From Sphingomonas sp. (GTDB lineage Bacteria; Pseudomonadota; Alphaproteobacteria; Sphingomonadales; Sphingomonadaceae), in assembly GCF_035910975.1 (NCBI RefSeq), contig NZ_JAMHWM010000026.1:63042-127041 (forward strand): a DNA stretch of 64,000 nt. Reading direction: 5' to 3'. Below, piece by piece: positions 45,322-63,509 of the stretch (its first letter is position 1; each line of letters opens with the position of its first letter). The notes under the pieces were generated by a model. It was not told the origin of the DNA, did not search any database, and saw nothing but the letters and a program-made list of their open reading frames with translations. A program made the translations under genes and the position numbers.

Positions 45322-45468
45322 TCCGGGCGCTGGTCTTCCTGCGAAATTGCTCGCCGCGACCGGACGCTCGCCCGGGTGATGACCGGGGGCGACTCCGCCC
45401 CGCATGCCGCCCGAACTTTTCCCGATTCGACGCTTTCATGGCGCGAGCGATCGGCTAGGGTCGTCGCA

Positions 45469-46428: not shown

Positions 46429-46842
46429 TCAGCCAGAGAGCGCCGCCAGCCATGCCGGCGCCGAATCGCCGCCGCGCAGCCGCTCCATCCGCCGGGTATC
46501 GATATAGTCGCGCCACGCGGCGATCAGCTCGCCGCGAAACTCGATCACCGCGGCATAGGGCATCGCCACCACGGTGCCGTCGGTGCGGGTATAGGCGTCC
46601 ACGCCTTCCGCAAACAACCGGTCGCCGCTTTCGGCATGGTGCAGGATGCGCCAGCGCGTTTCCGCCATGTCGCCGCGCAGCTGCTCCAGGAAGGCACGCA
46701 CCGCCGCCTTGCCCATCAGCGGTGGAAACGCGCCGACCGCCACGTGCCAGACCACATCGTCGGCCATGCCGGCGAGCGCGCCGTCGATGTCCCCCGCATT
46801 CCACGCCGCGATCACCGCCGCGAAGCGATCGGCGTGGCTCAA
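46429..46842 (-). CDS. NTF2/SnoaL-fold protein, limonene-1,2-epoxide hydrolase-like
   Basis: AWNAGD…DDVVWH…FAEGVD…IAAWRDYID. Confidence 0.75.
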   Translation of the reverse strand: MSHADRFAAVIAAWNAGDIDGALAGMADDVVWHVAVGAFPPLMGKAAVRAFLEQLRGDMAETRWRILHHAESGDRLFAEGVDAYTRTDGTVVAMPYAAVIEFRGELIAAWRDYIDTRRMERLRGGDSAPAWLAALSG

Positions 46843-48643: not shown

Positions 48644-48656
48644 GAGAAGGGACGTC

Positions 48657-49454
48657 TCACGCCCGCTTGGGCGGCCACGGTACGAAACCGCTGGTCCGTG
48701 CGATATAGTCGGCATAGCCCGGCTTGGTCTTGCGCATGCGGAATTCCAGCGTCGGCGCGCCCGACCATTTCATCAGAGTCCAGGTCAGCAGCACCGGCCC
48801 CGGCAGCGCAAGCCAGCCGAGCGGGGTTTCCGCACCGATCAGGAACAGCCCCCACCACACACAGGCGTCGCCGAAGTAGTTGGGGTGCCGGGTATAGCGC
48901 CACAGACCCGTCGACAGCACCTGCCCCGCGTTCGCCGGGTTCTTGCGGAAAACGGTCAGCTGCCAGTCGCCGATGCTTTCGAAGATGATGCCGAACACCG
49001 CCAGCGCGGCACCAACGTAGGCAAGCGTGCCCAGCGCGACCGGCTCCGCCTGGATCTGCCCCAGCATCACCGGCAGCGCGACGATGAACTGCAGCGGCGC
49101 CTGGGTGGCGAACACCAGCCAGAACGACGCCCTGGCATAGCCCCAGCCGCGCTTGTCCTGCGCCTTCTCCATCATCCGCACATAGCGCCGGTCGGGGCCG
49201 TGATCGCGCCACCGCCAGAACAGATATCCGCCCAGCCGGATCGCCCAGATCGCGCAGATCACGGTCAGCAGCCAGCGCCGGTCGGTCGCCACCTCCATCT
49301 GCGCGAAGGTCGCGATCGCCAGCACCATCATGCCCAGCGCCCACCAGGCATCCACCATCGTCACGTCGCGGATCGACGCGCAGATCGCCCACATCATCGT
49401 GAAAGCGATGACGACGGTCACCGCGTCGATCGCCAGGATTCTAATGACGTCCAT
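48657..49454 (-). CDS. DUF1295 / steroid 5-alpha-reductase-like membrane protein
   Basis: True start ATG 49454; VDAWWALG, DRRY, ESIGDWQL and GLWRYTRHPNYFGD. Confidence 0.88.
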   Translation of the reverse strand: MDVIRILAIDAVTVVIAFTMMWAICASIRDVTMVDAWWALGMMVLAIATFAQMEVATDRRWLLTVICAIWAIRLGGYLFWRWRDHGPDRRYVRMMEKAQDKRGWGYARASFWLVFATQAPLQFIVALPVMLGQIQAEPVALGTLAYVGAALAVFGIIFESIGDWQLTVFRKNPANAGQVLSTGLWRYTRHPNYFGDACVWWGLFLIGAETPLGWLALPGPVLLTWTLMKWSGAPTLEFRMRKTKPGYADYIARTSGFVPWPPKRA

Positions 49455-49467
49455 ATTCCCTCCCCCG

Positions 49468-49545
49468 GTGCTCCCGCGCAGGCGGGAGCCTAGAGCCACA
49501 CAGGACAGCATTTGCGGCCCTGGGCTCCCGCCTGCGCGGGAGCAC
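49468..49545. repeat. REP/REPIN-like element, family B, intact
   Basis: GTGCTCCCGCGCAGGCGGGAGCCTAG … CTGGGCTCCCGCCTGCGCGGGAGCAC, near-perfect inverted arms. Confidence 0.88.
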
Positions 49546-49558
49546 GGCGGTATGTCGA

Positions 49559-50323
49559 TCAACGCCCCGTGCTGATCGTCTCCATGTCCAGCATCCGTGC
49601 CAGCGCGCGTTCCTGCGCCTTGGGATCACGCGCCTTGTGGGCGCGGACCTCGATAGCCATGCGGTCGGTGTCGATCTCGTCGGTGCCGCGCTTGATCGCC
49701 GACAGGCCGATCTTCGCGATGTCAGCCGGCGTTTCCTTGGCGCCGGCGACGTGCGCGGCCATCCGCGTATCGACCGAACCGACGATCAGCGCCGACACGC
49801 TCGTCCCCTGTTTCGCCAGTTCGGCGCGGATCGATGTGCTCGCCGCGCGCGCCGCGAACTTCGACGGGCTGTATCCGCCCATCGCCGGCACCGCGACGAC
49901 GCCGCCCGATGACAGGATGTTGACGATCGCCCCGCCGCCATTGGCCTTCAGCGCAGGCGCGAAGGCGCGGCACATGCCGAGCAGGCCGAAGTAGTTGACC
50001 TCCATCTCCTCGCGCGCGGCGTCCATCGTCTCGGCGCCGATCAACCGCTGGTTGAGGAACGCGCCGGCATTGTTGACGACGATGGTGACATCGGTCGCCG
50101 CCTTCGCGGCCGCGGCGATCTGGTCGGGCCTGGCGACGTCGAGCGTCAACGCGACGACCTTCCCCTGTCCCTCCTCGACCAGATGCTGCGCGTTCGCCGG
50201 ATCGCGGCTGCCGACATAGACCTTCGCCGCACCACCCGCGATCAGCGCGCGGACGAACGCCTCGCCGATCCCGCGATTGCCCCCGGTGACGATCGCCACC
50301 GATCCCTCGATAGGCGTCGCCAC
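49559..50323 (-). CDS. Short-chain dehydrogenase/reductase
   Basis: TGGNRGIG, NNAG and YSPSK. Confidence 0.92.
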   Translation of the reverse strand: MATPIEGSVAIVTGGNRGIGEAFVRALIAGGAAKVYVGSRDPANAQHLVEEGQGKVVALTLDVARPDQIAAAAKAATDVTIVVNNAGAFLNQRLIGAETMDAAREEMEVNYFGLLGMCRAFAPALKANGGGAIVNILSSGGVVAVPAMGGYSPSKFAARAASTSIRAELAKQGTSVSALIVGSVDTRMAAHVAGAKETPADIAKIGLSAIKRGTDEIDTDRMAIEVRAHKARDPKAQERALARMLDMETISTGR

Positions 50324-50324
50324 G

Positions 50325-50858
50325 TCAGGCCGCCCGCGAACTGTACAGCACGTCGGCCGGATGCTTGGCGCCGCGCACCAGCTCGGTGCCGTCGGGGAAC
50401 ATCATCCCCCGGCCCCAGCTTTCGGCGAACGGCATCTCGTGGTTCCATTCCCACGCCAGCCGGCGGTGCGCGATCTTCCACTGGCCGTCGCGGCGCTCGA
50501 ACCGGTCGATCGCGCGGGCCAGCGTCAGCGTGTCGAATTTCTCGCCGCCCTTCTCCTTCATCCGCGCAAAGGCCAGGATGTAATGCTCGGCGTGGGCGAC
50601 GTCGCCGTCCAGTTCGATGACGATATTGGTCGCCAGGTGGTTCATGATCCCGCCCCTGGGCAGCATCTTCGCCATCAACGCCACATAGTCGCTGGCGGGT
50701 CCGTTGTAGACGCCGCCGTGATCCTCGATCGCGTCGGGGTGATAGGCATCGGCGATCAGCGCGATCTCCGCCCGGTCGGCGCCGCGCAGGTACAGGTTGA
50801 TGACGTCGGTGATCGCCTGCTTGTCCAGCAGCGCCTGGATTTCGGGCGGAAGGCTCAT
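50325..50858 (-). CDS. SnoaL_4/NTF2-like protein (LinA/BaiE dehydratase-like)
   Basis: ITDVINLYLRGADR, YHPDAIEDHG, NHLATN and DRFERRDGQWKIAHRR; ATG 50858. Confidence 0.8.
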   Translation of the reverse strand: MSLPPEIQALLDKQAITDVINLYLRGADRAEIALIADAYHPDAIEDHGGVYNGPASDYVALMAKMLPRGGIMNHLATNIVIELDGDVAHAEHYILAFARMKEKGGEKFDTLTLARAIDRFERRDGQWKIAHRRLAWEWNHEMPFAESWGRGMMFPDGTELVRGAKHPADVLYSSRAA

Positions 50859-50869
50859 CGATTTTCCTC

Positions 50870-52651
50870 TCAAAGAACGATGACGTCGGCGTCGGGCGCG
50901 TCGGCGTACAGCCGCTCGACGTCGCCAGAACGGCGGGCGATGACCGCGCGGCGGTTGATCGTGCCCTTGTCGGACATTTCATGCGCATTGGCCGATGGCG
51001 GTTCATCGAGGAGCAGCGCGCGGGATATCCTCGACGATCCGCCGTGCTGGCCCGCGTTGAACGCGCGCAGCCCGGCCTCGATATCCGCGCGCCCCGCGCC
51101 GCCGACGGTCCACAGCATCAGCGTCAGGTACGGCCGGTTCTCATCGCACAGCACGACATCGCGGACATGCGGCGCCAGGGCCTTGAGCAACTGGTCGCGC
51201 AGCGCCCCGCCATAGACCCACGCGCCGCTCGACAGCTTGAATTCCTCCGCCGCACGCCCGGCGAAAGCCAGTCCCGCCTCGGGCCGCGCATCGTCATGGA
51301 ACACCGCCATGTCGCCGGTGCGATAAAAGCCCTCGTCGTCGAACGCCTGGGCGGTCTTCTCAGGCTCGTCGAGGTAGCCGCGGGTAACGTTCGGCCCCTT
51401 CGCGCGCACCTCGTAACGGTCGCCCGCCGGCACCAGCTTCACCACCGCGCCCGGCGCGGGCAGGCCGATGCCCACCCGGTCGCTCTCGAAATAGATCGCC
51501 ATGAACGCCGACACCGTCTCGGTCGAACCATAGCCGGACGTCAGCGTGATACGGTGCCCGGTTTCCGCCACCGCGCACGCCTGCAGCCTGTCGTAGGTCG
51601 GCTGGCTCAAACCCGCGCCGCCATAGAGCATCAGCACCAGCCGCGAGAAGAAATTGCGGCGCAACACCGCATCCTGCTCCAGCGCCTCGACCAGCATCGT
51701 GTAGCCGAGCGGCACATTGTTGAAATAGCGCACCGGCACGTCGCGCAGGTTGCGGATCGATTCCTCGAACAGGCCGGGCACCGGCTTGCCGTCGTCGATG
51801 TACAGCGTGCCGCCTTCGGTCAGCGTGGTGCGCAGCACGAACGCGCCGGCCGCATGATGCCACGGCAGCCAGTCGAGCATCGTGTCGTGCCACCCGGCCG
51901 CCTCGCCGATCATCTGGCGGCACTGGATCGAATTGGCGCCCAGGTTGGCGAAGCTGATCTCGACCATCTTGGGCAGGCCGGTCGATCCCGACGTCAGCAT
52001 ATAGGCAGCGATGTCGTCCGGGCGGATCGCGTCGATCGCCACCTGCACCGCACCGGTCGGCACCGCCGCGTAGAGATCGCCAAGCGCCGTGGCCGGGCTG
52101 GGCGAGGCGGCGGGATCTGCGGTGACGAGGATCGCATCGCCCAGGTCGAGCGCCGCGAGCGCCGGTGCCAGCTTCGCCGTGTTTTCCGCGACGACGATGC
52201 CCGGCTTCACCTTGGCGATCACATGCGCCAGCCGGCCGTAATCGCCGCCCAGCGCGCCATAGGCCGAACTGACCGGACACACCGGCAGCCCCGCCGCCCA
52301 GGCCGCGAAGGTCAGGGCAGCGAACGCCGGCGTATTGTCGGCGATCAGCAGCAACGGTCGATCGGCCGGCGCGTGATCGAGCAGCCACTGCGTCGCCGCG
52401 TCGATCCGCCCCTTCAATTCACGATAGCTAAGCGTCGCCCAGCCATCGCGCCCGGCCTCGCGCCACGCCAGCGCGACCTTGTCGCCCTGCTGGCCCACAC
52501 TGTCGGCCAGCGCGCGGGGCAGGTTCGCGTCGAAATCGCCGATCGGCACGTTGCTGCGCAGCAGGATCGTGCCGTCGTCGCGCCGTTCGACATCCAGATC
52601 GACCGGCAACAGCTTCGCTTCGCGGAACGGGGGAAGTGCGCCCTCGGTCAT
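50870..52651 (-). CDS. Feruloyl-CoA-synthetase-like acyl-CoA ligase
   Basis: ERRDDGTILLRS N-terminus, LTSGSTGLPK, WLPWHH, GYGSTET, AEEFKLSSGAWV and EMSDKGTINRRAV; ATG 52651. Confidence 0.85.
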   Translation of the reverse strand: MTEGALPPFREAKLLPVDLDVERRDDGTILLRSNVPIGDFDANLPRALADSVGQQGDKVALAWREAGRDGWATLSYRELKGRIDAATQWLLDHAPADRPLLLIADNTPAFAALTFAAWAAGLPVCPVSSAYGALGGDYGRLAHVIAKVKPGIVVAENTAKLAPALAALDLGDAILVTADPAASPSPATALGDLYAAVPTGAVQVAIDAIRPDDIAAYMLTSGSTGLPKMVEISFANLGANSIQCRQMIGEAAGWHDTMLDWLPWHHAAGAFVLRTTLTEGGTLYIDDGKPVPGLFEESIRNLRDVPVRYFNNVPLGYTMLVEALEQDAVLRRNFFSRLVLMLYGGAGLSQPTYDRLQACAVAETGHRITLTSGYGSTETVSAFMAIYFESDRVGIGLPAPGAVVKLVPAGDRYEVRAKGPNVTRGYLDEPEKTAQAFDDEGFYRTGDMAVFHDDARPEAGLAFAGRAAEEFKLSSGAWVYGGALRDQLLKALAPHVRDVVLCDENRPYLTLMLWTVGGAGRADIEAGLRAFNAGQHGGSSRISRALLLDEPPSANAHEMSDKGTINRRAVIARRSGDVERLYADAPDADVIVL

Positions 52652-52653
52652 CG

Positions 52654-53160
52654 TCAGACGGCCGGACGGTCCAGCATCGCGTCGACGGTCGCCCGCACAC
52701 CCTTGCCGGCGATCTGTTCCTCCTGCAGCCGGCCTTCGAAATATTCGCGCCAGTGGCGGATCTTGCCGCCTTCGTAATTCAGGATGCCGCAATAGGGGAT
52801 GGCGACGCGGGTGCCGTCGATCGTGTCGAATTCGTCGACACCCTCCATCCACACCGTGTCGCCCACCTGCGCCACGTCGAACAGCCGCCAGCGGTTGTTC
52901 TTCAGCCGGCCCTTCATCGCCTCCAGCGTCTTGGCCATCTGCGCCTTGCCCTGGATCGGCGGCTTCAGCCCGCCCGAATTGTTCCAGGTCACATCGTCGT
53001 GCAGTTCGGCGAGCACGCCGTCCGCATCGGCGCGATGCCAGCTTTCGATCACGCGCTTCAGGCTGGCGATATGGTCGGCCATGTTTCTCTCCTTCGCTAG
53101 TGCCGGATAGGTGACGGCGACAGCCATCCCCCCGATCAGTATCGTCCTGCGATCGATCAC
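52654..53160 (-). CDS. NTF2/limonene-epoxide-hydrolase-like protein with optional Tat leader
   Basis: GTG 53160 overlapping the thiolase stop (MIDRRTILIGG…ALA), internal ATG 53082 with a strong RBS; WMEGVD…HWREYFE. Confidence 0.75.
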   Translation of the reverse strand: MIDRRTILIGGMAVAVTYPALAKERNMADHIASLKRVIESWHRADADGVLAELHDDVTWNNSGGLKPPIQGKAQMAKTLEAMKGRLKNNRWRLFDVAQVGDTVWMEGVDEFDTIDGTRVAIPYCGILNYEGGKIRHWREYFEGRLQEEQIAGKGVRATVDAMLDRPAV

Positions 53161-54368
53161 CGCTGCACCACCAGACTGACCGTGGTCGTGGTCGATCCGC
53201 CGATGTTGAGCGTCTGGACGGTCCGCGCCCCTTCGACCTGATAGTCGCCGGCGGTGCCCGTCACCTGCTTGAACGCGTCGAGTGCCATGCGCACGCCGGT
53301 GGCGCCGACTGGATGGCCGCAACCGATCAGCCCGCCCGATGCGTTTATCGGATTGGCGCCGCCGATCGCGATCGACCCGTCCTCGACGCGTTTCCACGCC
53401 TCGCCCGGCGCGGCGAGGCCGAGGTGCTCGATCGCCATATATTCGGTCATGCTGAAACAGTCGTGGACCTCATAGGCGTCAACCCGGTCCACCCCGGCGC
53501 GCGCGCGCGCTTCGTCCGCCGCGCGCTTGACCTGCGGAAAGACATAGCCCGACGGGTCGCGCGCATCGAGCTTGCGCCGCGCCGCGATCGGCGCGGAGCG
53601 ATGCCCCCAGCCGGCGATGCGCGGCAGGCTGGCGACATCGATCCCGCGTTCTTCGGCATAACGCTTCGCCCGGTCGGCGCTGGCGAGGAAGATCACGCTG
53701 GCGCCGTCGGTCACCTGGCCGCAATCGGTCTTGCGCACGCGGCCCTCGACGATCGGATTGGCTTCGGGATCGTCGGTGAAGCTCGCCGCGCCGAACTGCC
53801 AACCGCGGGTCTGCGCGTTGGGATTGCGGCGACCGTTGGCGAAATTGATCTCGGAAATGCGCGACAGATGGCGCGGATCGATGCCGAAACGCCTGTCATA
53901 CTCCTCGGTCAGGTCGGAAAAGGCGCGCGGCCAGACATAGGTGGCGTCGCCGAATTCATGCCCGGTCCATGCCGCCGCGCCCAGATGCTGCGCAGCAATC
54001 AGGCCCGGCACGTTGCGCATCTGCTCCATGCCCACAACGCAGGCGAGGTCGTAGCGCCCCGCCTCGATCTCCGCCGTCGCCGCCAGGATCGCGACCGATC
54101 CGCTGGCGCAAGCGGCCTCGTGGCGGCTGGTCGGCAGGCCGTCGAAATCCGGGTGGACCAGCCCGAAGAAACCGCCGAGCAGCCCCTGTCCGGCGAACAG
54201 TTCGGCGACGAAATTGCCGACATGGCCGGTCTCGACCTCCCTCGCGTCCAGCTTTGTCGCGTCGAGCCCGGCCTCGACCGTCTCGGCAAAGGCATCGGCC
54301 AGGTCGACGCCGCGGCGCGACCAGTTGTCCGCGAAATCGCTCTGCCAGCCGCCGAGGATATAGGTCAC
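53157..54368 (-). CDS. SCP2-type (SCP-x-like) thiolase / acetyl-CoA acetyltransferase
   Basis: HEAACASGS, VHDCF, GHPVGATG and LNIGGS. Confidence 0.88.
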   Translation of the reverse strand: MTYILGGWQSDFADNWSRRGVDLADAFAETVEAGLDATKLDAREVETGHVGNFVAELFAGQGLLGGFFGLVHPDFDGLPTSRHEAACASGSVAILAATAEIEAGRYDLACVVGMEQMRNVPGLIAAQHLGAAAWTGHEFGDATYVWPRAFSDLTEEYDRRFGIDPRHLSRISEINFANGRRNPNAQTRGWQFGAASFTDDPEANPIVEGRVRKTDCGQVTDGASVIFLASADRAKRYAEERGIDVASLPRIAGWGHRSAPIAARRKLDARDPSGYVFPQVKRAADEARARAGVDRVDAYEVHDCFSMTEYMAIEHLGLAAPGEAWKRVEDGSIAIGGANPINASGGLIGCGHPVGATGVRMALDAFKQVTGTAGDYQVEGARTVQTLNIGGSTTTTVSLVVQR

Positions 54369-54400
54369 CGGGCCTCTCCGATTCGTGCTGACGCAAAGTC

Positions 54401-54417
54401 AGTCTGATTAAGCAAGC
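54401..54417 (-). promoter_or_regulatory. Cluster operator motif, copy 1
   Basis: Minus strand GCTTGCTTAATCAGACT, between the MFS stop and the thiolase start. Confidence 0.65.
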
Positions 54418-55788
54418 TTATGTCGGGATAGCGCCGGGGTCAACCGGGTTCGCCGCCGCCAACGCGCTCACCGCGCGGCCGAACGGGCGGATCGACAGCA
54501 ACACCATCGTCCCCGCGATCGGGCCCAGTATCACCGTCGCCAGCGCGATCGCCGGCCCCAGCGCTGCAGGATCGCCAAGCACATGTTCGGTGATGAGCGC
54601 GACGCTGACCGGGCCGATCGTCAGCCCGACCAGCCCCAGCACGAAATAATAGAGCGCCGCCGTGCGGCCGCGCAGGTCGCCCGGCGCCGCCTCGCACAAT
54701 GCCGCGACCGCGATCCCGCCCGACGCGGTGAAGGCGACCATGCCCGGTGCAAGGATGTAGAGCGCGGTCCAGCCGTCTGGCGCGAGGCATGCGGCGATCA
54801 GCAGCGGGGTGACCAGCAGGATCGACAGCCCGGTCACCTTCAGGCTCGCCGCCTGCACGCCGCGCATCGCCAGCCGCGACGCCAGCCACCCGGCGCCGGC
54901 CAGTCCGAATCCACCGAACACCATCACGACGAAGCCGTAGCGCAGCCCCACCTCGCCCGCCGTCCAGCCGAACGCACGAATGAAATAGGCCGGCATCCAG
55001 CTCAGCACGCCGTAGATCAGCACGCAGTAGCAGGCCATGCCGCCCAGGTGCAGGACATGGAATCCGCGATGCCGGCGGATGTGGGCGATCAGCCCGCTGC
55101 CGCCCGTTTCCTGACGCACCGCCGCCTCGCGCCGCGCCGGCTCCGTGACGAAGGCGAGCAGCACGACGACGATCAGCCCGCCCAGCCCGACGATCACGAA
55201 CGTCGCCTGCCACGGCGCGAGCAGGCCGACGATCGGCAGTTTCAGCCCCTGTGTCTTCGAAATCGCCTGGATCGCGGCACCGCCCAGCATCAGCGCGAGG
55301 CCCGCGCCGATCGACGACGCCATCGAATAGACGCTGATCGGAAACGCGCGCTTCTCCGGCGGGAAGCTGTCGCCGATCATGCTGATCGCGGCGGGCGACA
55401 ATGTCGCCTCGCCCGCGCCCACGCCCATCCGCGCGACGAATATCTGCCAGAAGTTCGACGACAGCCCGCATGCTGCCGTCGCCAGGCACCAGAAGGTGAC
55501 GCCGCCGGCGATCACCTTCTTGCGCGATACGCGATCGACCAGCCAGCCGAGCGGCATGCCCATCGCGATGTAGAACAGCCCGAACGCCAGCCCCTGCAGC
55601 AGCGCGATCTGCGTATCGCTCAGCCCCAGGTCGGCCTTGATCGGATCGATCAGCAGGCTCAGGATCGTGCGGTCGACGAAGCTGACGGTGTAGCCCAGCG
55701 TCAGCACCGCCACCGTGAGCCAGCTGCGCGCCGGGGACGGCCAGCCGCCCGTCACGCCCGCCGACGGTGCCGTCGCCCCGGCCATCAC
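54418..55788 (-). CDS. Spinster-like MFS transporter
   Basis: YTVSFVDRTILSLL, GVGAGEATLSPAA and DSFPPEKRA. Confidence 0.9.
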   Translation of the reverse strand: MMAGATAPSAGVTGGWPSPARSWLTVAVLTLGYTVSFVDRTILSLLIDPIKADLGLSDTQIALLQGLAFGLFYIAMGMPLGWLVDRVSRKKVIAGGVTFWCLATAACGLSSNFWQIFVARMGVGAGEATLSPAAISMIGDSFPPEKRAFPISVYSMASSIGAGLALMLGGAAIQAISKTQGLKLPIVGLLAPWQATFVIVGLGGLIVVVLLAFVTEPARREAAVRQETGGSGLIAHIRRHRGFHVLHLGGMACYCVLIYGVLSWMPAYFIRAFGWTAGEVGLRYGFVVMVFGGFGLAGAGWLASRLAMRGVQAASLKVTGLSILLVTPLLIAACLAPDGWTALYILAPGMVAFTASGGIAVAALCEAAPGDLRGRTAALYYFVLGLVGLTIGPVSVALITEHVLGDPAALGPAIALATVILGPIAGTMVLLSIRPFGRAVSALAAANPVDPGAIPT

Positions 55789-56198
55789 CGCGTTGCTGAA
55801 TCGAAGTCCTGCACCACGCCCATCTCGCTCAGCAGATGGTGGCGGTCATAATATTCGCGCCAGACCTTGATCTTGTCGCCCTCGAACTCGAGCGCGCCGC
55901 ACACAGGCGCGGCACCGGGCTTGCCGTTGCACACGAAGGTGTCGAGCCGCTCCATGTACAGCGTCCCGTTGATGACGCCCATGTTGCGAACCTGCAGGTC
56001 GATCGACGAGGCAAGCGCGCCGAGCCCGGAAATCCGTTTGTGGATCGCATCGCGGCCGACGATCGGGTCGATCATCATCGAATGCAGCACGGCATCCTCG
56101 GTCATCAGCGCGGCGGCGGCGTCCCAGTCCATCGCGTTCCACGCCGTGATCATCTCGTGACCGACCTCGATCTTGCGTGCGTCGGATGCCTCGCTCAT
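55785..56198 (-). CDS. Limonene-1,2-epoxide hydrolase family protein
   Basis: MERLD and VWREYYD reproduce the R-x-D…D catalytic arrangement of LEH. Confidence 0.8.
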   Translation of the reverse strand: MSEASDARKIEVGHEMITAWNAMDWDAAAALMTEDAVLHSMMIDPIVGRDAIHKRISGLGALASSIDLQVRNMGVINGTLYMERLDTFVCNGKPGAAPVCGALEFEGDKIKVWREYYDRHHLLSEMGVVQDFDSATR

Positions 56199-56216
56199 CG
56201 CCTGTCTCTCCAGTTA

Positions 56217-56233
56217 AGTCGTTTTATGCAAGT
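56217..56233 (-). promoter_or_regulatory. Cluster operator motif, copy 2
   Basis: Minus strand ACTTGCATAAAACGACT, downstream of TTGACA (56263-56258). Confidence 0.7.
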
Positions 56234-56363
56234 GAAGGTGCCGCAGCGGACCGGCCGTGTCAACGCCGACCCAGTCCGGCCTGTCACCGACCACCCGTCG
56301 CACCTAATCCGGCGGGTTGCGGACGCTCTTGACAAGGATCAACTCCGGGCAGATGTTCGTGCC

Positions 56364-56380
56364 GCTTGCTTAAAGCGACT
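56364..56380 (+). promoter_or_regulatory. Cluster operator motif, copy 3
   Basis: GCTTGCTTAAAGCGACT, downstream of TTGACA (56329-56334). Confidence 0.7.
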
Positions 56381-56427
56381 GAGTTCGACCGCCCGATACG
56401 GGGCGGCGACGACCAGGAGAGGATCTG

Positions 56428-58653
56428 ATGGCCGCACGTCCGTTCACCGCCGTTTCGTGTCTCGCGATCGCCGCCGCCTTCGCCGCGCCCGCCGCCGCCC
56501 AGTCGGCTCCACCGCCGGCGCAGCAGGAGGCTGACGGTCCGCAGGTCGCCGACGTCGTCGTCACCGCGCGCAAGCGCGAGGAAAGCCTGCAGGACGTGCC
56601 GATCGCGGTGACCGCCTACTCGGGCGACGCGATCCGCGACGCGCAGATCGTCGATCTTTCCGCCATTGCCGGCCGCACCCCCAGCTTCACCTTCCAGAAA
56701 CAGGGGTCGATCGAGCAGGAGGCATTCATCCGCGGCGTCGGCACCGTCCGCCTGACCAGCGCCACCGCCGACCCGTCCGTCGGCCTGTTCATCAACGAGG
56801 TCTATATCGGCCGCCGCGGTGCCGCGACGCCCCCGATATTCGATCTCGAGCGGGTCGAGGTGCTTCGCGGTCCGCAGGGCACGATCTTCGGCAAGAACGT
56901 GGTCGGCGGCGCGGTCAGCCTCATCACCGGCGCGCCGCGCTTCGAATTCGGCGGCGCGGCCTATATCGCCGCCGGCAATTACGGCACCGTCCAGTCGGAA
57001 GCCCATGTGACGGGCGCGCTCAGCGACACCGTCGCCGCGCGCATCGCCTTCGCCACCGACCGCCACGACGGCTACAGCCGCAACATCGTCAACGGCCAGG
57101 AACTGGAGGACACCAACGGCTATGCCGGACGCCTGTCCTTCCTGGTCAACGCCTCCGATCGCCTGACGCTCAACTTCGTCGGCGACGTCAGCCACGATTC
57201 GGGCGGCGGCCAGGCCCGCCACGCAGTCGATGACCCGACCCGCGCGGGCGTCGGAGCCATCGCGGCGGCGAACCTGTCCAGCGATCCGCGCACCACCTTC
57301 ACACCGTATGAGCAGTTCCAGCGCCGCACGACCTACGGCTTCTCCGCGCGGGCCGACTATGACTTCGGCGGCGCGACGCTCACCTATCTCGGCGCGCTGC
57401 GCGGCGGCGATTCGGGACAGCGCTTCAGCCAGGCCGGCGCCGGCGCACCGCCGTCGCTGACCGATTCGGTGCTCACCCAGTTCGAGAAATACACCGGCGT
57501 CACGCAGGAACTGCGCATCGCCTCCGATCCCGCCAAGCAGCTCCGCTGGCTGCTCGGCCTCTACTATCTGCGCGAGGAAACCGATCGCAGCTCGGAAAAC
57601 GCCGCGCGTTCGGCCCTGCCCGGCGGCCCCGGCGGCACCCGCGACAGCCTCGACGGCGTGAACAACTTCACCCAGAACGGCGTGGCATCCAACTATGCCG
57701 CGTTCGGTGAAGTCGAATATGAATTCATGCCCGGGCTGACCGCGTCGCTCGGCGCGCGCTACACCATCGACAACAAGGTGACGGACGCGTCCGCCACGAT
57801 CATCAGCTTCGGCATGCCCGGCGACATCCTGTCACCCGCGCCGCTGCGCACACCGTACAACATCTCGGTCGAGAACACCTGGCGCGAGCTGACCCCGCGC
57901 GCCGCGCTCGAATGGAAGGCGTCGGACAATGTCCTCGTCTACGCATCCGCGGCGAAGGGCTTCAAGGGCGGCGGCTGGCAGGCTGCGACCCCCGATCCGG
58001 TCACCGCGGCGCGGCCGTTCAACCCGGAAACCGCGTGGAACTATGAAATCGGCATCAAGAGCGACCTGTTCGATCGCCGTGTCCGCCTGAACCTCGCGGC
58101 CTTCCGCCTCGACTTCAACGACCTCCAGGTCGAACAGCTCGACGACGTGCTGCTGACCACCGTCGTAACCAACGCCGCCAGCGCGAAGATCCAGGGTATC
58201 GAGGGCGAGGTCTCGCTCGCCGTTACCGAGGGCTTCACCCTGTCCGGCTCCGGCTCGATCCTCGACGCCAAGTACAAGCTCTATGTCGATCCCCGCCGCA
58301 ACATCACCTACACCGGCAACTCGCTACCGCGCACGCCAGACTATCAATTCTCGGTCGCGGCGGACCTGAAGCAGCCCATCGGCGGCGATCTGGAGCTGAT
58401 GGCGAACGCCAGCTACACCTATCAGGACACATTCTTCTACGGCCCCGACAACACCAATTTCGAGCCTGGCTACGGCCTGCTCGACGCGCGGCTCGGCATC
58501 GGCAAAATCGGCGGCCGCTGGGCGGTGTCGCTTTGGGGCAAGAACCTGACCAACCGTTTGTACCGTACCAGCGTGATCCCGTTCCTGGGCGACGAATCCT
58601 CGCTCTACGGCGCCCCACGCACCTACGGCGTCCGTCTCTCGTCGAAATTCTGA
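56428..58653 (+). CDS. TonB-dependent receptor
   Basis: DVVVTARKREESLQDVP, LERVEVLRGPQGTIFGKN; C-terminal YGAPRTYGVRLSSKF. Confidence 0.95.
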   Translation: MAARPFTAVSCLAIAAAFAAPAAAQSAPPPAQQEADGPQVADVVVTARKREESLQDVPIAVTAYSGDAIRDAQIVDLSAIAGRTPSFTFQKQGSIEQEAFIRGVGTVRLTSATADPSVGLFINEVYIGRRGAATPPIFDLERVEVLRGPQGTIFGKNVVGGAVSLITGAPRFEFGGAAYIAAGNYGTVQSEAHVTGALSDTVAARIAFATDRHDGYSRNIVNGQELEDTNGYAGRLSFLVNASDRLTLNFVGDVSHDSGGGQARHAVDDPTRAGVGAIAAANLSSDPRTTFTPYEQFQRRTTYGFSARADYDFGGATLTYLGALRGGDSGQRFSQAGAGAPPSLTDSVLTQFEKYTGVTQELRIASDPAKQLRWLLGLYYLREETDRSSENAARSALPGGPGGTRDSLDGVNNFTQNGVASNYAAFGEVEYEFMPGLTASLGARYTIDNKVTDASATIISFGMPGDILSPAPLRTPYNISVENTWRELTPRAALEWKASDNVLVYASAAKGFKGGGWQAATPDPVTAARPFNPETAWNYEIGIKSDLFDRRVRLNLAAFRLDFNDLQVEQLDDVLLTTVVTNAASAKIQGIEGEVSLAVTEGFTLSGSGSILDAKYKLYVDPRRNITYTGNSLPRTPDYQFSVAADLKQPIGGDLELMANASYTYQDTFFYGPDNTNFEPGYGLLDARLGIGKIGGRWAVSLWGKNLTNRLYRTSVIPFLGDESSLYGAPRTYGVRLSSKF

Positions 58654-58704
58654 GGCCAAAGGGGGCGTGTGACTGGCCGGTGCGGGAGATCGCTCCGGCC
58701 AGTC

Positions 58705-58721
58705 ACTTGCATTACGAGACT
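58705..58721 (+). promoter_or_regulatory. Cluster operator motif, copy 4
   Basis: ACTTGCATTACGAGACT, about 45 nt upstream of the dioxygenase start. Confidence 0.65.
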
Positions 58722-58765
58722 ATCTGGTCTAGGCCAGTAATCAGGCGCAATCCGAAAGACATGTC

Positions 58766-60238
58766 GTGATGAAGGTCGAACGTCTCCCCCCCGTCGTCAC
58801 CAGCCTGAAACCCGGCAACCATCCCTATCTCAACGGCGCCTGGACCCCGCTGCACGAGGAGGTGGACGCCGAGGATCTGGAGGTGATCGCCGGCGCGATT
58901 CCGGCCGACATCGACGGCGTCTACATCCGCAACACCGAAAACCAGGTGCACCAGCCGCTGGGGCGCCATCACCCCTTCGACGGCGACGCGATGATCCACC
59001 AGATCGCGTTCCGGGACGGCAAGGCCAGCTACCGCAACCGCTTCGTCCGCACCCGCTGTTTCGAGGCGGAGCAGGAGGCCGGCCGCTCGCTATGGGGTGG
59101 TCTCGCCGATCCGCCGGGCACCTCGGTCCGTCCCGGCTACGGCGCGCATGGCAGCCTCAAGGACAATGCCTCGACCGACGTCGTCGTCCATGCCGGCAAG
59201 CTCTATTCGACCTTCTACCAGTGCGGCGAGGCCTATACGCTCGACCCGCTGACGCTCGACGATCTCGGCATCGCGCCATGGGCGCCGATCGACGGCGTGT
59301 CGGCACATTGCAAGGTGGACGAGGCGACCGGCGAGCTGCTGTTCTTCAACTATTCGAAGCACGCGCCGTACATGCATTACGGCGTGGTCGATGCCTCGGG
59401 CAAGCGCACCACCTACATGCCGATCCCGCTGCCGGGCCCGCGGTTACCGCACGACATGGCGTTTTCGGAACGCTTCTCGATCCTCAACGACCTGCCGGTG
59501 TTCTGGGATCCGGGCCTGCTGGAGCGCGGCGTCCACGCGGTGCGCTTCTTCCGCGACATTCCCTCGCGTTTCGCCATCGTACCGCGCCACGGCGGCGACG
59601 TCCGCTGGTTCGATGCCGCGCCCTGCTACATCCTCCATTTCCTCAACGCCTATGAGGATGGCGACGAGCTGGTGCTCGACGGCTATTTCCAGGAAGACCC
59701 CACCCCGCCGCCGCTCCACGGCTCGGTCGAGGGCCATGAACACATGATGGCCTATCTCGACATGCACAGTTTCAAGAGCCGCCTGCATCGCTGGCGCTTC
59801 GACCTGAAGACCGGCGCGACGCGCGAGGAGCGGCTGTACGACGGCATCGTCGAATTCGGCATGATGAACGCGCGCTACGCCGGAAAGCCTTATCGCTACG
59901 CCTATTCGGTCACGTCGAAGCCCGGCTGGTTCCTGTTCGACGGCTTCGTCAAGCACGACCTGGAAACGGGCGAGGCGCAGACGATCAAGCTGGAGCCCGG
60001 CCGCTACGCCAGCGAAGCCCCATTCGCCCCGCGGGTCAACGCCTCGTCGGAGGATGACGGCTATCTCGTCAGCTTCGTGATCGACGAAAATCGCGGCACG
60101 TCCGAATGCATATTGATCGACTGCAAGGATTTCGCCGCCGGTCCGGTGTGCCGAATCGCACTGCCGCACAAGATCTCCAGCGGCACGCACTCGGTCTGGG
60201 CCGATCGCGCCTTCATCGAGGGCGGGCGCGCCGCCTGA
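58766..60238 (+). CDS. Carotenoid cleavage oxygenase (RPE65/CCO/LSD) family dioxygenase
   Basis: HPFDGDAMIH, RNRFVRT, four Fe-ligand His (SAHCKVD, LPHDM, ILHFLN, GTHSVW) and SEAPFAPR…EDDGYL. Confidence 0.93.
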   Translation: MMKVERLPPVVTSLKPGNHPYLNGAWTPLHEEVDAEDLEVIAGAIPADIDGVYIRNTENQVHQPLGRHHPFDGDAMIHQIAFRDGKASYRNRFVRTRCFEAEQEAGRSLWGGLADPPGTSVRPGYGAHGSLKDNASTDVVVHAGKLYSTFYQCGEAYTLDPLTLDDLGIAPWAPIDGVSAHCKVDEATGELLFFNYSKHAPYMHYGVVDASGKRTTYMPIPLPGPRLPHDMAFSERFSILNDLPVFWDPGLLERGVHAVRFFRDIPSRFAIVPRHGGDVRWFDAAPCYILHFLNAYEDGDELVLDGYFQEDPTPPPLHGSVEGHEHMMAYLDMHSFKSRLHRWRFDLKTGATREERLYDGIVEFGMMNARYAGKPYRYAYSVTSKPGWFLFDGFVKHDLETGEAQTIKLEPGRYASEAPFAPRVNASSEDDGYLVSFVIDENRGTSECILIDCKDFAAGPVCRIALPHKISSGTHSVWADRAFIEGGRAA

Positions 60239-60239
60239 C

Positions 60240-61289
60240 ATGGCCGTGCGGGTGATCCAGTGGGCGACGGGCGCGATGGGACGGACGTCGCTCCGGCGGA
60301 TCATCGACCATCCCGACCTCAAACTCGTTGGCGTCTACGTCTATTCCGCCGACAAGGCCGGGCGCGATGCCGGCGATCTGGCGAAGCGTCCGGCGACCGG
60401 CGTGATCGCCACCGACGATATCGAAGCGATCCTCGCCCTCGACGCCGATGTGGTGATGCATATGCCGCGCATCACCCTGCCCTATGATGCGATGAACGCC
60501 GATGTCGCGCGGCTGCTCGCCTCGGGCAAGAACGTCATCTCGACCGCCGGCTTCCACTATCCGCCCGCCCATGCTGCGCATTATGCTGCGCCGCTCGCCG
60601 CAGCATGCGTGGCCGGCGACAGCACGCTCGCCGGGCTGGGCGTCAATCCCGGCACGATCGTCGAGCGGCTGACGCTCGCCGCGACCGGGCTGTGCGCGGA
60701 CCTCGCACATGTCGATATCCGCGAGACGGTCGATGCCTCGTCGATGGCGTCGAAGGAATTCGTGTTCGGCCTGATGGGGTTCGGGGCCGATCCCGCGACC
60801 GACGACATCACCGACGGCCCGCTTGCCGCGCTCTATACCGCGCTGTTCTCCGAAGTCCTGCACCTCGCCGCTGCCGGCCTCGACGATCCGGTCGTGGGGA
60901 TCGCGCCACGCCACGAAATCACCGCCGCGCCGCGCGATATCAACCTGCCCGCCGGGATCATCCCGGAAGGCACCGTCGCCGCGACGCGCTGGCGCTGGAC
61001 GGCGACGCTGGCGAGCGGCATCTCTCTGACGCTATCGATCCTGTGGACCGCCGATCCCGCGCTTCATCCCGAGGACGGGCGCGGCCACTGGACGATCGAC
61101 ATCACCGGCCGGCCCAACATCCGCCTGACCGTCGCGATCGACGAAGGCGATCCGGCGGCAGCCCCCGCCCGCGCGCTGACCGACGCCACCGTCGCGGTCG
61201 CCATCGCCGGCATCCCGGCGGTGGTTGCCGCCCCGCCCGGCTTCTTCGCCTATCCCGCACCGCCCGCCTTCCGCCGGCGGCTGGGGTGA
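60240..61289 (+). CDS. NAD(P)-dependent oxidoreductase, DapB/2,4-diaminopentanoate dehydrogenase-like
   Basis: VIQWATGAMG Rossmann variant, KAGRDAG, LLASGKNVIST, GVNPG and IPAVVAAPPG. Confidence 0.78.
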   Translation: MAVRVIQWATGAMGRTSLRRIIDHPDLKLVGVYVYSADKAGRDAGDLAKRPATGVIATDDIEAILALDADVVMHMPRITLPYDAMNADVARLLASGKNVISTAGFHYPPAHAAHYAAPLAAACVAGDSTLAGLGVNPGTIVERLTLAATGLCADLAHVDIRETVDASSMASKEFVFGLMGFGADPATDDITDGPLAALYTALFSEVLHLAAAGLDDPVVGIAPRHEITAAPRDINLPAGIIPEGTVAATRWRWTATLASGISLTLSILWTADPALHPEDGRGHWTIDITGRPNIRLTVAIDEGDPAAAPARALTDATVAVAIAGIPAVVAAPPGFFAYPAPPAFRRRLG

Positions 61290-61461
61290 CGGCAGGGGTT
61301 CAGAAGTTGGATTTCGACTGGCAGCGTCGTCGTCCGATGGCATCTGAATCTTTCCCGCTCCCCGGCGCGCGGCGCGCCTTGCCCACGCCGATAGCCGGCG
61401 GGGCGAAGCCGGATCGATCGCGCGCGTTGCCCCTACCCTCGTCAACTTCGGACCTGCGATC

Positions 61462-62610
61462 ATGACCGTCTACATCCGCGACGCGCTGCGCACCCCGCGC
61501 GGAAAGGCCCGGCCCGACGGTGGGCTTGCGCAGCATATGCCGCAGGACCTCGTCGCGGCGCTGATCGACGCGCTGGAGGATCGCGCGCCCGGCGCCCGCG
61601 CCACCGACAGCCTGATGCTCGGCTGCGTCGGCCAGGTCGGCGCGCAGGGCGGCAACATCGCGGTGGTCTCGAAGCTCGCCGCCGGCCTGCCGGATGGCGC
61701 CGCCGCGCAGACGATCAACGCCTATTGCGCCAGCGGCCTCGTCGCGGTCGGCCAGGCGGCCGCGCTGATAGAGAGCGGCACGATCGACACCGCGCTGGCC
61801 GGGGGTGTGGAGATGATGTCGCACGTCGGCTTCATGGCCGACAAGGCTGCCTTCTACACCGACCGTAATCTGCCCCGCGCCGCGCAGTTCATCCCCGTAG
61901 CGGTCGCCGCCGATCGCCTTGCGACGCGCGAGGGCATCGATCGCGCGGCGATGGATCGCGCGGCCGAGATCTCGCAAGCCCGCGCGCTTGCCGCCGAAGC
62001 CGATCCGGCGCTGACGAAATCGCGCATTGTAGTGGGCGACCTTTCCCGAGAGGAAAACCCGCGCGCGGGCATGACGCTCGACAGGCTTGCCGCATTGCCC
62101 GCCGCCTTCGCCGATCTCGCCACCGCCTATACCGACGTACTGGGCGACGAGGCGATCACCTATACGCACAGCATCGCCCACGCCCCGCCGATGTGCGACG
62201 GCGCCGGCCTTGCCGCGCTCACCCGCGATCCCGCCGGCGCCCGCGCGCGCATCATCGCCTATGCCGAAGTCGGCGGGGACGCATCCGCCTCGCTCACCGC
62301 CGGCTTCGCCGCGATGGACCGGGTGCTGGGCCGCGCCAGCCTGACCCTCGCCGATATCGACCGTATCGAGTTCATGGAGGCGTTCGCTGTCGTCATCGCG
62401 AAGTTCCTGCGCGACCGCGATGTCGACCCCGCGCGCGTCAACATATCGGGCGGCCATCTCGCCAAGGGGCATCCGATGGGCGCGACCGGGGCGATCCTGC
62501 TATCCACCCTGCTCGACACGCTCGACGCCGCCGAAGGGCGTTACGGCATGGTCGTCGTCACCGGCGCGTCGGGAGTAGGCGCGGCGATGATCGTCGAGCG
62601 CTGCGCATGA
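61462..62610 (+). CDS. Thiolase-family protein with atypical active site
   Basis: DALRTPRGK, NAYCASG, DGA and GHPMGATG; the C-terminal CxGGG motif is replaced by TGASG. Confidence 0.85.
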   Translation: MTVYIRDALRTPRGKARPDGGLAQHMPQDLVAALIDALEDRAPGARATDSLMLGCVGQVGAQGGNIAVVSKLAAGLPDGAAAQTINAYCASGLVAVGQAAALIESGTIDTALAGGVEMMSHVGFMADKAAFYTDRNLPRAAQFIPVAVAADRLATREGIDRAAMDRAAEISQARALAAEADPALTKSRIVVGDLSREENPRAGMTLDRLAALPAAFADLATAYTDVLGDEAITYTHSIAHAPPMCDGAGLAALTRDPAGARARIIAYAEVGGDASASLTAGFAAMDRVLGRASLTLADIDRIEFMEAFAVVIAKFLRDRDVDPARVNISGGHLAKGHPMGATGAILLSTLLDTLDAAEGRYGMVVVTGASGVGAAMIVERCA

Positions 62611-63509
62611 TACCGTCGCTGCGTATGCCGGTCGTCGCCGCGCCGATGTTCCTGGTGACCGGACCCGACCTGGTCATCGCGGCGAGCAACGCCGGCATCC
62701 TCGGGGCCTTCCCGACCAGCAACTGCCGGACCGCGGAGGAGCTCGACAGCTGGATGGCGCGTATCGCCGGCGCGGTCGGCGATCGGCCGTGGGCGGCGAA
62801 CCTCATCACCCATTCGACCAACCCGCGCCTTGCCGATGATCTCGCGCTGGTCGCCAAATATCGTCCGCCGCTCGTCATCACCGCACTCGGCAGCCCCGTG
62901 CCGGTAATCGATACGGTCCATGCCTATGGCGGCACCGTGCTGGCCGACGTCGTCGATCTGAAGCTTGCCCGCAAGGCGCTGGCCGCCGGCGCCGACGGCC
63001 TCGCCTGCGTCAGCCACGGCGCCGGCGGCCACACCGGCAGCCTTTCGCCGCTCGCCTTCGTGTCGGCGGTACGGCAGTTCCATGCCGGCCCGCTCGCGGT
63101 GGGCGGCGGGATCGCCGACGGCGCCGGTGTCGCCGCCGCGATCGCGGCGGGCGCCGACCTCGTCTACATGGGCACCCGTTTCATCGCCGCGACCGAGAGC
63201 CTTGCCGCGCCGGGCTACAAGGCGATGCTGGCCGAGGCGACGATCGCGGACATCGTCGTCAGCGCCGCCCCCACCGGCACGCCCGCGTCGTGGCTGCGCC
63301 CCAGCCTCGCCGCCGCCGGCTACGCCGACGACGCCCCAGCCGGTGCCCGCAACTATGGCGCGCCCGACGAAGCCGTGAAACGCTGGCGCGACATCTGGGC
63401 CGCGGGGCAGGGCGTCCACGCCACCACCGCCGAACAGCCGGTCGCCGAGATCGTCGCCGAGCTCGAAACGGGCTTCCGCGCAGCCCAGGCCCGGCTGGCG
63501 CGTTTCTAG
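62607..63509 (+). CDS. Nitronate monooxygenase / FabK-like FMN oxidoreductase
   Basis: ATG 62607 (ATGA overlap); VVAAPMFLV, GAGGHTG, GGGIADG, VYMGTRFIAATES and DIWAAGQGV. Confidence 0.88.
   Translation: MIPSLRMPVVAAPMFLVTGPDLVIAASNAGILGAFPTSNCRTAEELDSWMARIAGAVGDRPWAANLITHSTNPRLADDLALVAKYRPPLVITALGSPVPVIDTVHAYGGTVLADVVDLKLARKALAAGADGLACVSHGAGGHTGSLSPLAFVSAVRQFHAGPLAVGGGIADGAGVAAAIAAGADLVYMGTRFIAATESLAAPGYKAMLAEATIADIVVSAAPTGTPASWLRPSLAAAGYADDAPAGARNYGAPDEAVKRWRDIWAAGQGVHATTAEQPVAEIVAELETGFRAAQARLARF

Follow-up and report, generated by a model that had tools for sequence, protein, structure and literature searches.

A linked carotenoid-cleavage-oxygenase family enzyme and SCP2-type thiolase of Sphingomonas and their likely orthologues in Mycobacterium tuberculosis: candidate core of an uncharacterised catabolic module

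Oxygenase and thiolase of the Sphingomonas cluster

We analysed a 64-kb stretch of DNA from Sphingomonas sp. (C26:63042-127041 of a 3.44-Mb genome with roughly 68% G+C), which is referred to as the window and whose own numbering is used for all positions in it. An 18-kb cluster in the window (45376-63509) holds genes for a carotenoid-cleavage-oxygenase (CCO) family enzyme, an SCP2-type thiolase and a DapB-like protein, and the open reading frames (ORFs) of these three genes were confirmed (490, 403 and 349 aa, respectively; coordinates of all features are given in Table 1). The minus-strand operon of the cluster carries genes for a limonene-epoxide-hydrolase (LEH)-like protein, an MFS transporter, the SCP2-type thiolase, a second LEH-like protein, an acyl-CoA ligase, a SnoaL_4 protein, a short-chain dehydrogenase/reductase (SDR), a DUF1295 protein, another CoA ligase and a third LEH-like protein. 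The plus-strand operon carries genes for a TonB-dependent receptor, the CCO, the DapB-like protein, a classical thiolase and an NMO-family FMN enzyme.

The CCO gene is the sole gene of this family in its genome. The encoded protein matches PF03055 (RPE65) with 417.8 bits (cut-off: 27), residues 27-479 covering positions 2-468 of the 469-position profile, and its closest named homologues are from Sphingomonas, Allosphingosinicella and Caulobacter. The initial annotation of this DNA had likened the CCO to M. tuberculosis Rv0913c and the thiolase to the adjacent Rv0914c, quoting motifs for both; each likeness was borne out, the motifs were found in the window proteins (for the CCO: IRNTEN..HHPFDGD, LPGPRLPHDMAF and ISSGTHS), and most of them are identical in the M. 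tuberculosis proteins. The window CCO shares 55% identity with Rv0913c over 467 aa (526 bits), and the two are reciprocal best matches. A forward search with the window CCO returned the thiolase-adjacent CCOs of Mycobacteriaceae genomes with 546-598 bits, other paralogues scoring at most 176, and a reverse search of the whole window genome with Rv0913c returned the window CCO with 525 bits. In a maximum-likelihood tree of 51 CCOs, the window CCO, Rv0913c and all thiolase-linked CCOs fell into one 47-row clade with 100% SH-aLRT support, free of Rv0654-like paralogues; outside it were the second mycobacterial CCO paralogues (~30% identity) and two other alphaproteobacterial CCOs. Within the clade, 7 Mycobacteriaceae rows (support 100) were sister to the main alphaproteobacterial clade (support 99), with deeper alphaproteobacterial branches outside both. 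Transfer between phyla would fit such a branching order; the tree is a quick one with limited outgroups, and we therefore claim no direction of transfer.

The predicted iron-binding residues His181, His229, His291 and His475 align with the conserved histidines of a plant carotenoid cleavage dioxygenase and of LsdA, and show no variation among 48 clade members and 4 outgroups. The window CCO scored below the cut-off of NF052295 (8'-apo-carotenoid 13,14-cleaving dioxygenase; 229 bits vs 675, with 213 bits for Rv0913c) and below those of the lignostilbene dioxygenase (LSD) models NF053778 and NF053780 (219 vs 800 and 186 vs 650 bits, respectively). Since the enzyme also lacks the Tyr/Lys pair of LSDs, we place it in a distinct CCO subfamily. 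MtCCO (Rv0654), the other CCO paralogue of mycobacteria and a member of the same Pfam family, is a characterised M. tuberculosis enzyme with in vitro cleavage activity on carotenoids and apocarotenals (PMC5133782). The second CCO paralogues of two Mycobacteriaceae, taken as Rv0654-like with their gene context unchecked, are ~30% identical to the window CCO and lie outside its clade, and the 10-kb stretches around them yielded no orthologue of the SCP2-type thiolase at ≥45% identity.

No thiolase-CCO fusions were found among long CCO homologues, whose N-terminal extensions were cyclic-nucleotide-binding domains or unassigned. Two such homologues (P0141 and P0182; 34-41% identical to the window CCO) have the oxygenase fused to two cyclic-nucleotide-binding domains at the N-terminus, which suggests that alkene cleavage may be regulated by cyclic nucleotides in some organisms. 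One in-frame stop codon each was seen in two CCO orthologues, G434:C1:605462-606895 (TAA) and G764:C1:703031-704482 (TGA), the former directly adjoining an intact thiolase gene; these may be recent pseudogenes or sequencing errors.

The window thiolase shares 52% identity with Rv0914c over 408 aa (401 bits). Both proteins exceed the cut-off of the NF004936/PRK06289 equivalog (375 bits) with 619.8 bits for the window thiolase and 739.3 bits for Rv0914c, and they are reciprocal best matches, the reverse search of the whole window genome giving 385 bits for the window thiolase and 104 bits for the next thiolase. The motifs quoted for this protein (ILGGWQSDFA, RHEAACASGS, AAWTGHE and NPNAQTRGW) are all present. 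The HDCF motif is the signature of SCP2 thiolases, which carry it in place of NEAF. In the window protein, Cys87 (in AACASGS), HDCF (302-305) and GHP (351-353) are invariant across 42 thiolase orthologues and correspond to general thiolase fingerprints (PMC3406046); because these residues are kept, the protein should be a working, catalytically competent thiolase rather than a Cys-less aldolase or a thiolase-like protein. The closest solved relatives are the trypanosomatid SLP structures (PDB: 4bi9/3zbg; 141-148 bits), and the zebrafish type-1 thiolase (PDB: 6hsj; 94 bits) is more distant. With the mammalian SCPx domain, SLP and the zebrafish enzyme, the window thiolase has in common the CxS nucleophile, HDCF for NEAF, and GHP; unlike SCP2-type thiolases of this kind, it has no fused SCP2 domain or DUF35 partner and falls into an equivalog family of its own (NF004936).

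Identification of the M. tuberculosis counterparts was performed through genomes and contigs that carry them. G251, a Mycobacterium metagenome-assembled genome (MAG) and one of four Actinomycetota MAGs that matched a 20-mer of the M. tuberculosis insertion sequence IS6110, encodes a CCO that is 57% identical to the window CCO and 88% identical to proteins of M. marinum and M. simiae, with an SCP2-type thiolase (55-56%) directly upstream on the same strand. A search with this CCO led to a cluster of 1775 members, the named ones being 'dioxygenase / carotenoid oxygenase family protein [Mycobacterium tuberculosis]' of 502 aa. In its 90%-identity cluster, the M. tuberculosis CCO is joined by the adjacent 412-aa thiolase, by appearance a clustering artefact, and the cluster of the M. 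marinum CCO likewise lists a 157-aa VOC protein with an adjacent GenBank accession number.

The gene order around the CCO and thiolase was read from two M. tuberculosis-complex contigs (L021 and L025). It begins with a carboxyltransferase (accD3-like), an enoyl-CoA hydratase (echA6-like), two beta-lactamase-fold proteins and a P-type ATPase (ctpE-like), followed by an antitoxin/toxin-like pair, a glyoxalase and small proteins before the CCO and the thiolase; then come PPE, PE, a BCCT transporter (betP-like), TacA/TacT and insertion sequence (IS) elements, and finally a GGACT protein, Nramp, an FMN reductase, a DAP_DH_C protein (358 aa), an SDR and PstS. This is what we take to be the order of H37Rv from Rv0904c to Rv0928, and we assigned Rv numbers because of that fit, so that the CCO is presumably Rv0913c, the thiolase Rv0914c and the DAP_DH_C protein Rv0926c. 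The literature agrees with the product name of Rv0914c and with Rv0913c/Rv0914c adjoining PPE14 (PMC8669151, PMC11754781). Rv0913c is called only a putative CCO in PMC5133782; in the open literature searched, both genes appear only as bare annotation, transcript changes or screen hits, and no paper assigning a function and no described cluster of CCO, thiolase and TonB receptor was found.

Given 55% and 52% identity, the same catalytic residues, reciprocal best matches, the tree and adjacency, the window CCO and thiolase are almost certainly orthologous to Rv0913c and Rv0914c. In M. tuberculosis, the stop codon of the thiolase gene lies 1 nt from the start codon of the CCO gene, and the locus differs from the window cluster in that it is without HxlR, transporter, ligase and NTF2-fold genes.

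Co-occurrence, linkage and the DapB-like gene

As the initial annotation had supposed, the CCO and thiolase subfamilies co-occur in Alphaproteobacteria and Actinomycetota, and they do so far beyond chance. Presence or absence was scored with 4-12 thiolase candidates per genome, so that thiolase counts may be low, and compared by Fisher's exact test. Among 151 Sphingomonadales genomes, 29 had both genes, 6 the CCO only, 1 (a 69%-complete genome) the thiolase only and 115 neither (p = 5e-24). The corresponding counts were 7, 0, 0 and 54 for 61 Mycobacteriaceae genomes (p = 2e-9); 12, 7, 0 and 382 for 401 Actinomycetota (p = 2e-18); and 5, 2, 1 and 243 for 251 Alphaproteobacteria (p = 2e-8).

Linkage is stronger evidence than these p-values. 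The two genes lie ≤13 kb apart in 28 of the 29 Sphingomonadales genomes with both, about half of the pairs being direct neighbours, as are 11 of the 12 actinobacterial pairs (the genes of the 12th are separated by 2.2 kb). Three arrangements occur: thiolase followed by CCO in most actinobacteria, and CCO followed by thiolase or divergent genes in sphingomonads. One genome (G418) has two separate pairs. Further loci were reached via the nearest representatives at 50% clustering, mostly metagenome proteins: in a Bacteroidota MAG, the thiolase gene (54% identity) immediately precedes that of the CCO (44%); a Porticoccaceae-like locus consists of HxlR, CCO, classical thiolase, MFS, CoA ligase (43%), NMO (47%), SDR and aldehyde dehydrogenase genes; and in a Myxococcota locus the CCO stands with two enoyl-CoA hydratases and no thiolase. 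Pairwise distances of CCOs and of thiolases are correlated (Mantel r = 0.61; 0 of 2000 permutations reached this value). From linkage and co-occurrence together, the CCO and the thiolase are very likely coupled in function.

A tblastn matrix of 50 loci revealed three recurring cluster formats: HxlR-CCO-thiolase-DUF1295; TonB receptor-NMO-CCO-CoA ligase-thiolase-classical thiolase; and the large window-type cluster, which is found almost gene for gene in Caulobacter sp. NIBR2454. The context of uptake, ligase, second-thiolase, SDR and NMO genes recurs in Caulobacter, other sphingomonads, the Porticoccaceae-like genome and the Mycobacteriaceae genome G296. The locus in the last of these (L056; G296:C70:107000-126999 of a 3.5-Mb genome) has CoA ligase, NMO (63%), CCO and thiolase genes, with a classical thiolase and a tandem HxlR gene divergent from them, and it forms a link from the minimal pair of mycobacteria to the clusters of proteobacteria.

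Only 1 nt lies between the CCO stop and the start of the DapB-like gene. Orthologues of the latter (≥43% identity) were found in 8 of the 151 Sphingomonadales genomes, every one of which has the pair, at 0-18 kb from the CCO, and at the cluster of Caulobacter sp. NIBR2454. Because the gene is always near the CCO yet present in few genomes, it is a true, though facultative, member of the alphaproteobacterial cluster. The initial annotation had placed the protein in the family of Rv0926c. Membership of the same broad family stands (31% identity over 354 aa, 112 bits; both proteins match the Ord model NF040740 weakly, with 86 bits for the window protein and 102 for Rv0926c vs a cut-off of 400), but Rv0926c is not its orthologue. 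In G251, the true Rv0926c orthologue (88% identical, in synteny with Rv0927c, mntH and Rv0923c) scored 117 bits against the window protein, and two other paralogues scored 161 and 158 bits. The reverse search of the window genome with Rv0926c gave a single match (102 bits), which is trivially unique.

The DapB model TIGR00036 gave 33.7 bits for the window protein vs a cut-off of 122, a match confined to the N-terminal NAD(P) domain. AmDH4 (PDB: 6g1m; E ~1e-12) is among its closest solved relatives, and CfusAmDH (PDB: 6iau; E ~2e-5) is a much weaker match; these amine dehydrogenases and Ord (2,4-diaminopentanoate dehydrogenase) have the same DapB_N + DAP_DH_C architecture. The catalytic glutamate of the amine dehydrogenases (E102 in AmDH4, E108 in CfusAmDH; PMC9325545) aligns to Gly104 (in ISTAGFHYP) of the DapB-like protein in a pairwise HMMER alignment of low identity, and Rv0926c lacks it as well. 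A role as a native amine dehydrogenase acting on the carbonyl product of the CCO was rejected as a default because this glutamate is missing, and the protein is best called an NAD(P) oxidoreductase.

Regulation, proposed pathway and rival explanations

The pattern CTTGCWTWANNNGACT (16 nt) has exactly four matches in the window, all intergenic and all inside the cluster, and no further match was found in the window even with one mismatch allowed. It was spotted by reading the intergenic regions, a generic repeat search having been swamped by high-GC noise. Exact matches were also found in five of the related alphaproteobacterial loci that were scanned (L026, L032, L035, L043 and L075), and none was found in the Mycobacteriaceae loci scanned, so there is no evidence of an operator common to both phyla. 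A homologue of the cluster's HxlR regulator lies beside the CCO and thiolase in most related loci, and the tandem form is found with the pair in most of the sphingomonads and also in four Mycobacteriaceae genomes (G287, G311, G296 and G288); none was found beside Rv0913c in M. tuberculosis or beside its counterpart in G251. The pattern is probably the operator of the tandem HxlR regulator, through which the cluster is probably controlled.

We lean towards the view that the CCO and the SCP2-type thiolase form the conserved core of an uncharacterised catabolic module, which Rv0914c-Rv0913c would also encode; that the module is catabolic at all is likely on the gene content described above. In the proposed pathway, a hydrophobic alkene would enter the cell, in the window organism via the TonB-dependent receptor and the MFS transporter, and the CCO, with Fe(II) and O2, would split a C=C bond to give carbonyl fragments. 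A fragment would then be oxidised to an acid and converted to its CoA ester by the AMP-binding ligases of the cluster. The NMO-family FMN enzyme, the DUF1295 reductase-like protein or both might deal with conjugated double bonds, the NTF2-fold proteins could act as epoxide hydrolases, hydratases or isomerases, and the SCP2-type and classical thiolases would shorten the chain by thiolysis. SCP2 thiolases accept 2-methyl-branched substrates (PMC3406046). As an alkene-cleaving oxygenase is here paired with a branch-tolerant thiolase, methyl-branched polyene or isoprenoid lipids, for example carotenoids or apocarotenoids, are the leading substrate candidates, an idea that we offer tentatively and as a guess. 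A bolder account, possible though doubtful, would have Rv0914c-Rv0913c as an old two-enzyme pathway, exchanged between phyla, that consumes carotenoid-, retinoid- or other polyene isoprenoid-type lipids and in which the thiolase releases propionyl-/acetyl-CoA; M. tuberculosis would keep a stripped-down version, possibly acting on host-derived lipids, and sphingomonads and Caulobacter the full regulon with TonB uptake and HxlR. In kind, the module would be a variant of CCO-initiated catabolism and not a new kind of system.

Several observations weigh against a conserved catabolic core. The Fisher p-values ignore the relatedness of the genomes, and a CCO without a detected thiolase was seen in 7 of 19 actinobacterial and 6 of 35 sphingomonad genomes with a CCO, some of which may hold thiolases that were missed because of the small number of candidates scored per genome. 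Carotenoid-type and stilbene-type enzymes cannot be told apart by profile scores (229 vs 219 bits). No acyl-CoA dehydrogenase or enoyl-CoA hydratase gene was found in the cluster, so that a standard beta-oxidation cycle is incomplete there, and an aldehyde dehydrogenase is present in some relatives only. Since M. tuberculosis keeps only the two-gene core, without uptake genes or HxlR, the role of the pair there could differ.

The host being a sphingomonad, the CCO might instead be a lignostilbene/stilbenoid-type dioxygenase and the cluster might degrade lignin-derived or plant phenolic dimers, as with LsdA and NOV1. The sphingomonad enzymes LsdA, LSD4 and NOV1 have the same fold and four-His iron site, and in their catabolic pathways, too, cleavage of a C=C bond is the first step. 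Among PDB relatives of the window CCO, LsdA ranks second (172 bits), and the LSD model score is near that of the apocarotenoid model. The 4-hydroxyl of the substrate is bound in LSDs by Tyr-101 and Lys-134 (PMC8191317). These residues align to Leu113 and Tyr151 of the window CCO (the alignment around 113 is less certain than that around 151), and none of the 48 sequences of the clade has the LSD Tyr or Lys at the respective column. With both LSD models far below their cut-offs, no aromatic ring-cleavage genes found in the cluster, and a context of thiolase and CoA-ligase genes that suits the CoA metabolism of an aliphatic chain, we consider a lignostilbene-type role very unlikely. A biosynthetic or signalling role, in which the thiolase would run in the direction of Claisen condensation or the CCO would make an apocarotenoid-like aldehyde sensed by HxlR, fits the two-gene core without transporters in M. 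tuberculosis and several mycobacteria and the minimal clusters that consist of HxlR, CCO, thiolase and DUF1295 only. HxlR-family regulators commonly respond to aldehydes or electrophiles, which also speaks for such a role. It is nevertheless unlikely: in many lineages the pair is accompanied by a TonB receptor, an MFS transporter, CoA ligases and a second thiolase of degradative type, no carotenoid or polyketide biosynthesis genes were found nearby, and all characterised SCP2-type thiolases are degradative (PMC3406046).

Inherited or hitch-hiking synteny, with the CCO and the thiolase in unrelated pathways, would draw on the fact that many of the sampled genomes are related, so that counts are not independent, and that some genomes have one gene without the other. 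It sits badly with the three gene arrangements, the adjacency of the pair in Pseudomonadota, Actinomycetota and Bacteroidota, near-perfect co-occurrence despite the many other thiolases of each genome, the common operator-like motif before both genes in the window and the two pairs of G418, and we regard it as extremely unlikely. No more probable is the set proposed in the initial annotation, in which the CCO, the thiolase and the DapB-like protein would form one conserved trio common to the window and Mycobacterium. For such a trio speak the immediate succession of CCO and DapB-like genes, the cluster linkage of the orthologues in all 8 sphingomonads and Caulobacter sp. NIBR2454, and the distance of ~14 kb between Rv0926c and Rv0913c in the M. 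tuberculosis-complex contigs. The reciprocal-best-match test and the distribution contradict it. Rv0926c is not the best mycobacterial match; only 8 of the 35 CCO-positive Sphingomonadales have the DapB-like gene; Mycobacteriaceae genomes have up to 15 paralogues of the family, none above 40% identity; G296 has the CCO/thiolase pair and no family member at all; and in G302, G273 and G288 no paralogue was found near the pair. A gene in the Rv0926c position, 12-35 kb from the Rv0913c counterpart, is found in only 3 of the 7 pair-bearing Mycobacteriaceae, and the proximity looks like genus-level synteny.

The catabolic-core reading offers a concrete hypothesis, in which an alkene is cleaved and a branched CoA ester then undergoes thiolysis, for a module whose conservation extends over Alpha- and Gammaproteobacteria, Actinomycetota and Bacteroidota, and it would make Caulobacter and Sphingomonas tractable, non-pathogenic models for finding the substrate of two unassigned M. 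tuberculosis genes. If the substrate were a carotenoid-like lipid, this would be the first bacterial pathway for the complete catabolism of such compounds.

Cluster features and further observations

Table 1. Features of the 18-kb cluster, with positions in the window and supporting profile matches or location
Feature	Position	Strand	Evidence or location
Tandem (two-domain) HxlR-family regulator	45376..46416	+	Pfam HxlR 142 bits, two stretches
NTF2-fold protein (SnoaL_2 / limonene-epoxide-hydrolase-like)	46429..46842	-	SnoaL_2 68 bits, LEH 36 bits
Acyl-CoA ligase 1 (AMP-binding)	46839..48533	-	Pfam AMP-binding 187 bits
DUF1295 membrane protein (steroid-5-alpha-reductase-like)	48657..49562	-	Pfam DUF1295 230 bits, from residue 57
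Short-chain dehydrogenase/reductase (SDR)	49559..50323	-	Pfam adh_short 119 bits
SnoaL_4 NTF2-fold protein	50325..50873	-	Pfam SnoaL_4 83 bits
Acyl-CoA ligase 2 (AMP-binding); start uncertain	50870..52852	-	AMP-binding 167 bits, from residue 117
LEH/SnoaL_2-like protein, N-terminal RR-type signal-like stretch	52654..53160	-	SnoaL_2 48 bits, LEH 46 bits
SCP2-type thiolase, Rv0914c orthologue	53157..54368	-	NF004936 620 bits; Pfam Thiolase_C_1 + Thiolase_N
Operator-like motif CTTGCTTAATCAGACT	54401..54416	-	just upstream of thiolase
MFS transporter	54418..55788	-	Pfam MFS_1 156 bits
LEH/SnoaL_2-like protein	55785..56198	-	SnoaL_2 46 bits, LEH 40 bits
Operator-like motif CTTGCATAAAACGACT	56217..56232	-	divergent promoter region
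Operator-like motif CTTGCTTAAAGCGACT	56365..56380	+	divergent promoter region, upstream of TonB-dependent receptor
TonB-dependent outer-membrane receptor	56428..58653	+	Pfam Plug, TonB_dep_Rec_b-barrel
Operator-like motif CTTGCATTACGAGACT	58706..58721	+	45 nt upstream of CCO start
Carotenoid-cleavage-oxygenase (CCO) family enzyme, Rv0913c orthologue	58766..60238	+	PF03055 418 bits
DapB_N / DAP_DH_C-type NAD(P) oxidoreductase, accessory cluster member	60240..61289	+	DapB_N 30 bits; NF040740 86 bits vs cut-off 400
Classical (type II-like) thiolase	61462..62610	+	Thiolase_N, Thiolase_C; TIGR01930 228 bits vs cut-off 240
NMO-family FMN oxidoreductase (FabK-like), last cluster gene	62607..63509	+	Pfam NMO 95 bits

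Several of the remaining cluster genes recur with the pair elsewhere. Homologues of acyl-CoA ligase 1 (40-53% identity) are found in many related loci, including those of the Mycobacteriaceae genomes G296 and G288 and a gammaproteobacterial locus, and the classical thiolase also recurs in many of them; NMO homologues in related loci are 46-67% identical, with the value for G296 given above. The DUF1295 gene adjoins the pair in the minimal clusters. Four NTF2-fold proteins are encoded in the cluster, three of them LEH-like and one of the SnoaL_4 type. Judged by eye from translations, with no family search, the genes past the NMO gene encode an MgtE-like transporter and an AAA ATPase and seem to have no relation to the cluster.

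Two gene starts in the minus-strand operon probably lie downstream of those of the longest ORFs. That of acyl-CoA ligase 2 overlaps the adjacent LEH-like gene by ~200 nt, and the ligase therefore probably starts later. Two strong hairpin-forming inverted repeats flank the DUF1295 gene, at 49463-49550 (38-nt arms, 87% complementarity) and 48556-48653 (39-nt arms, 74%); because the former lies inside the longest DUF1295 ORF and upstream of the start of the Pfam match, the true start of this gene is probably downstream of the repeat. The LEH-like gene that follows the SCP2-type thiolase downstream has its start overlapping the thiolase stop, and the N-terminus of its product (VIDRRTILIGGMAVAV) opens with VIDRRTILIGGMAVAVTYPALA, which resembles a twin-arginine export signal.

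A 20-mer of IS6110 was found as an exact match on very short contigs (0.5-1.8 kb; some with a coverage of 0.4-2x) of unrelated bacterial assemblies, including Lentibacillus, Nitratireductor, Bacillus subtilis, several JCM Streptomyces and Metamycoplasma (L002, L004-L006, L008, L010, L012-L015 and L017-L019), which looks like contamination of public assemblies with M. tuberculosis DNA.

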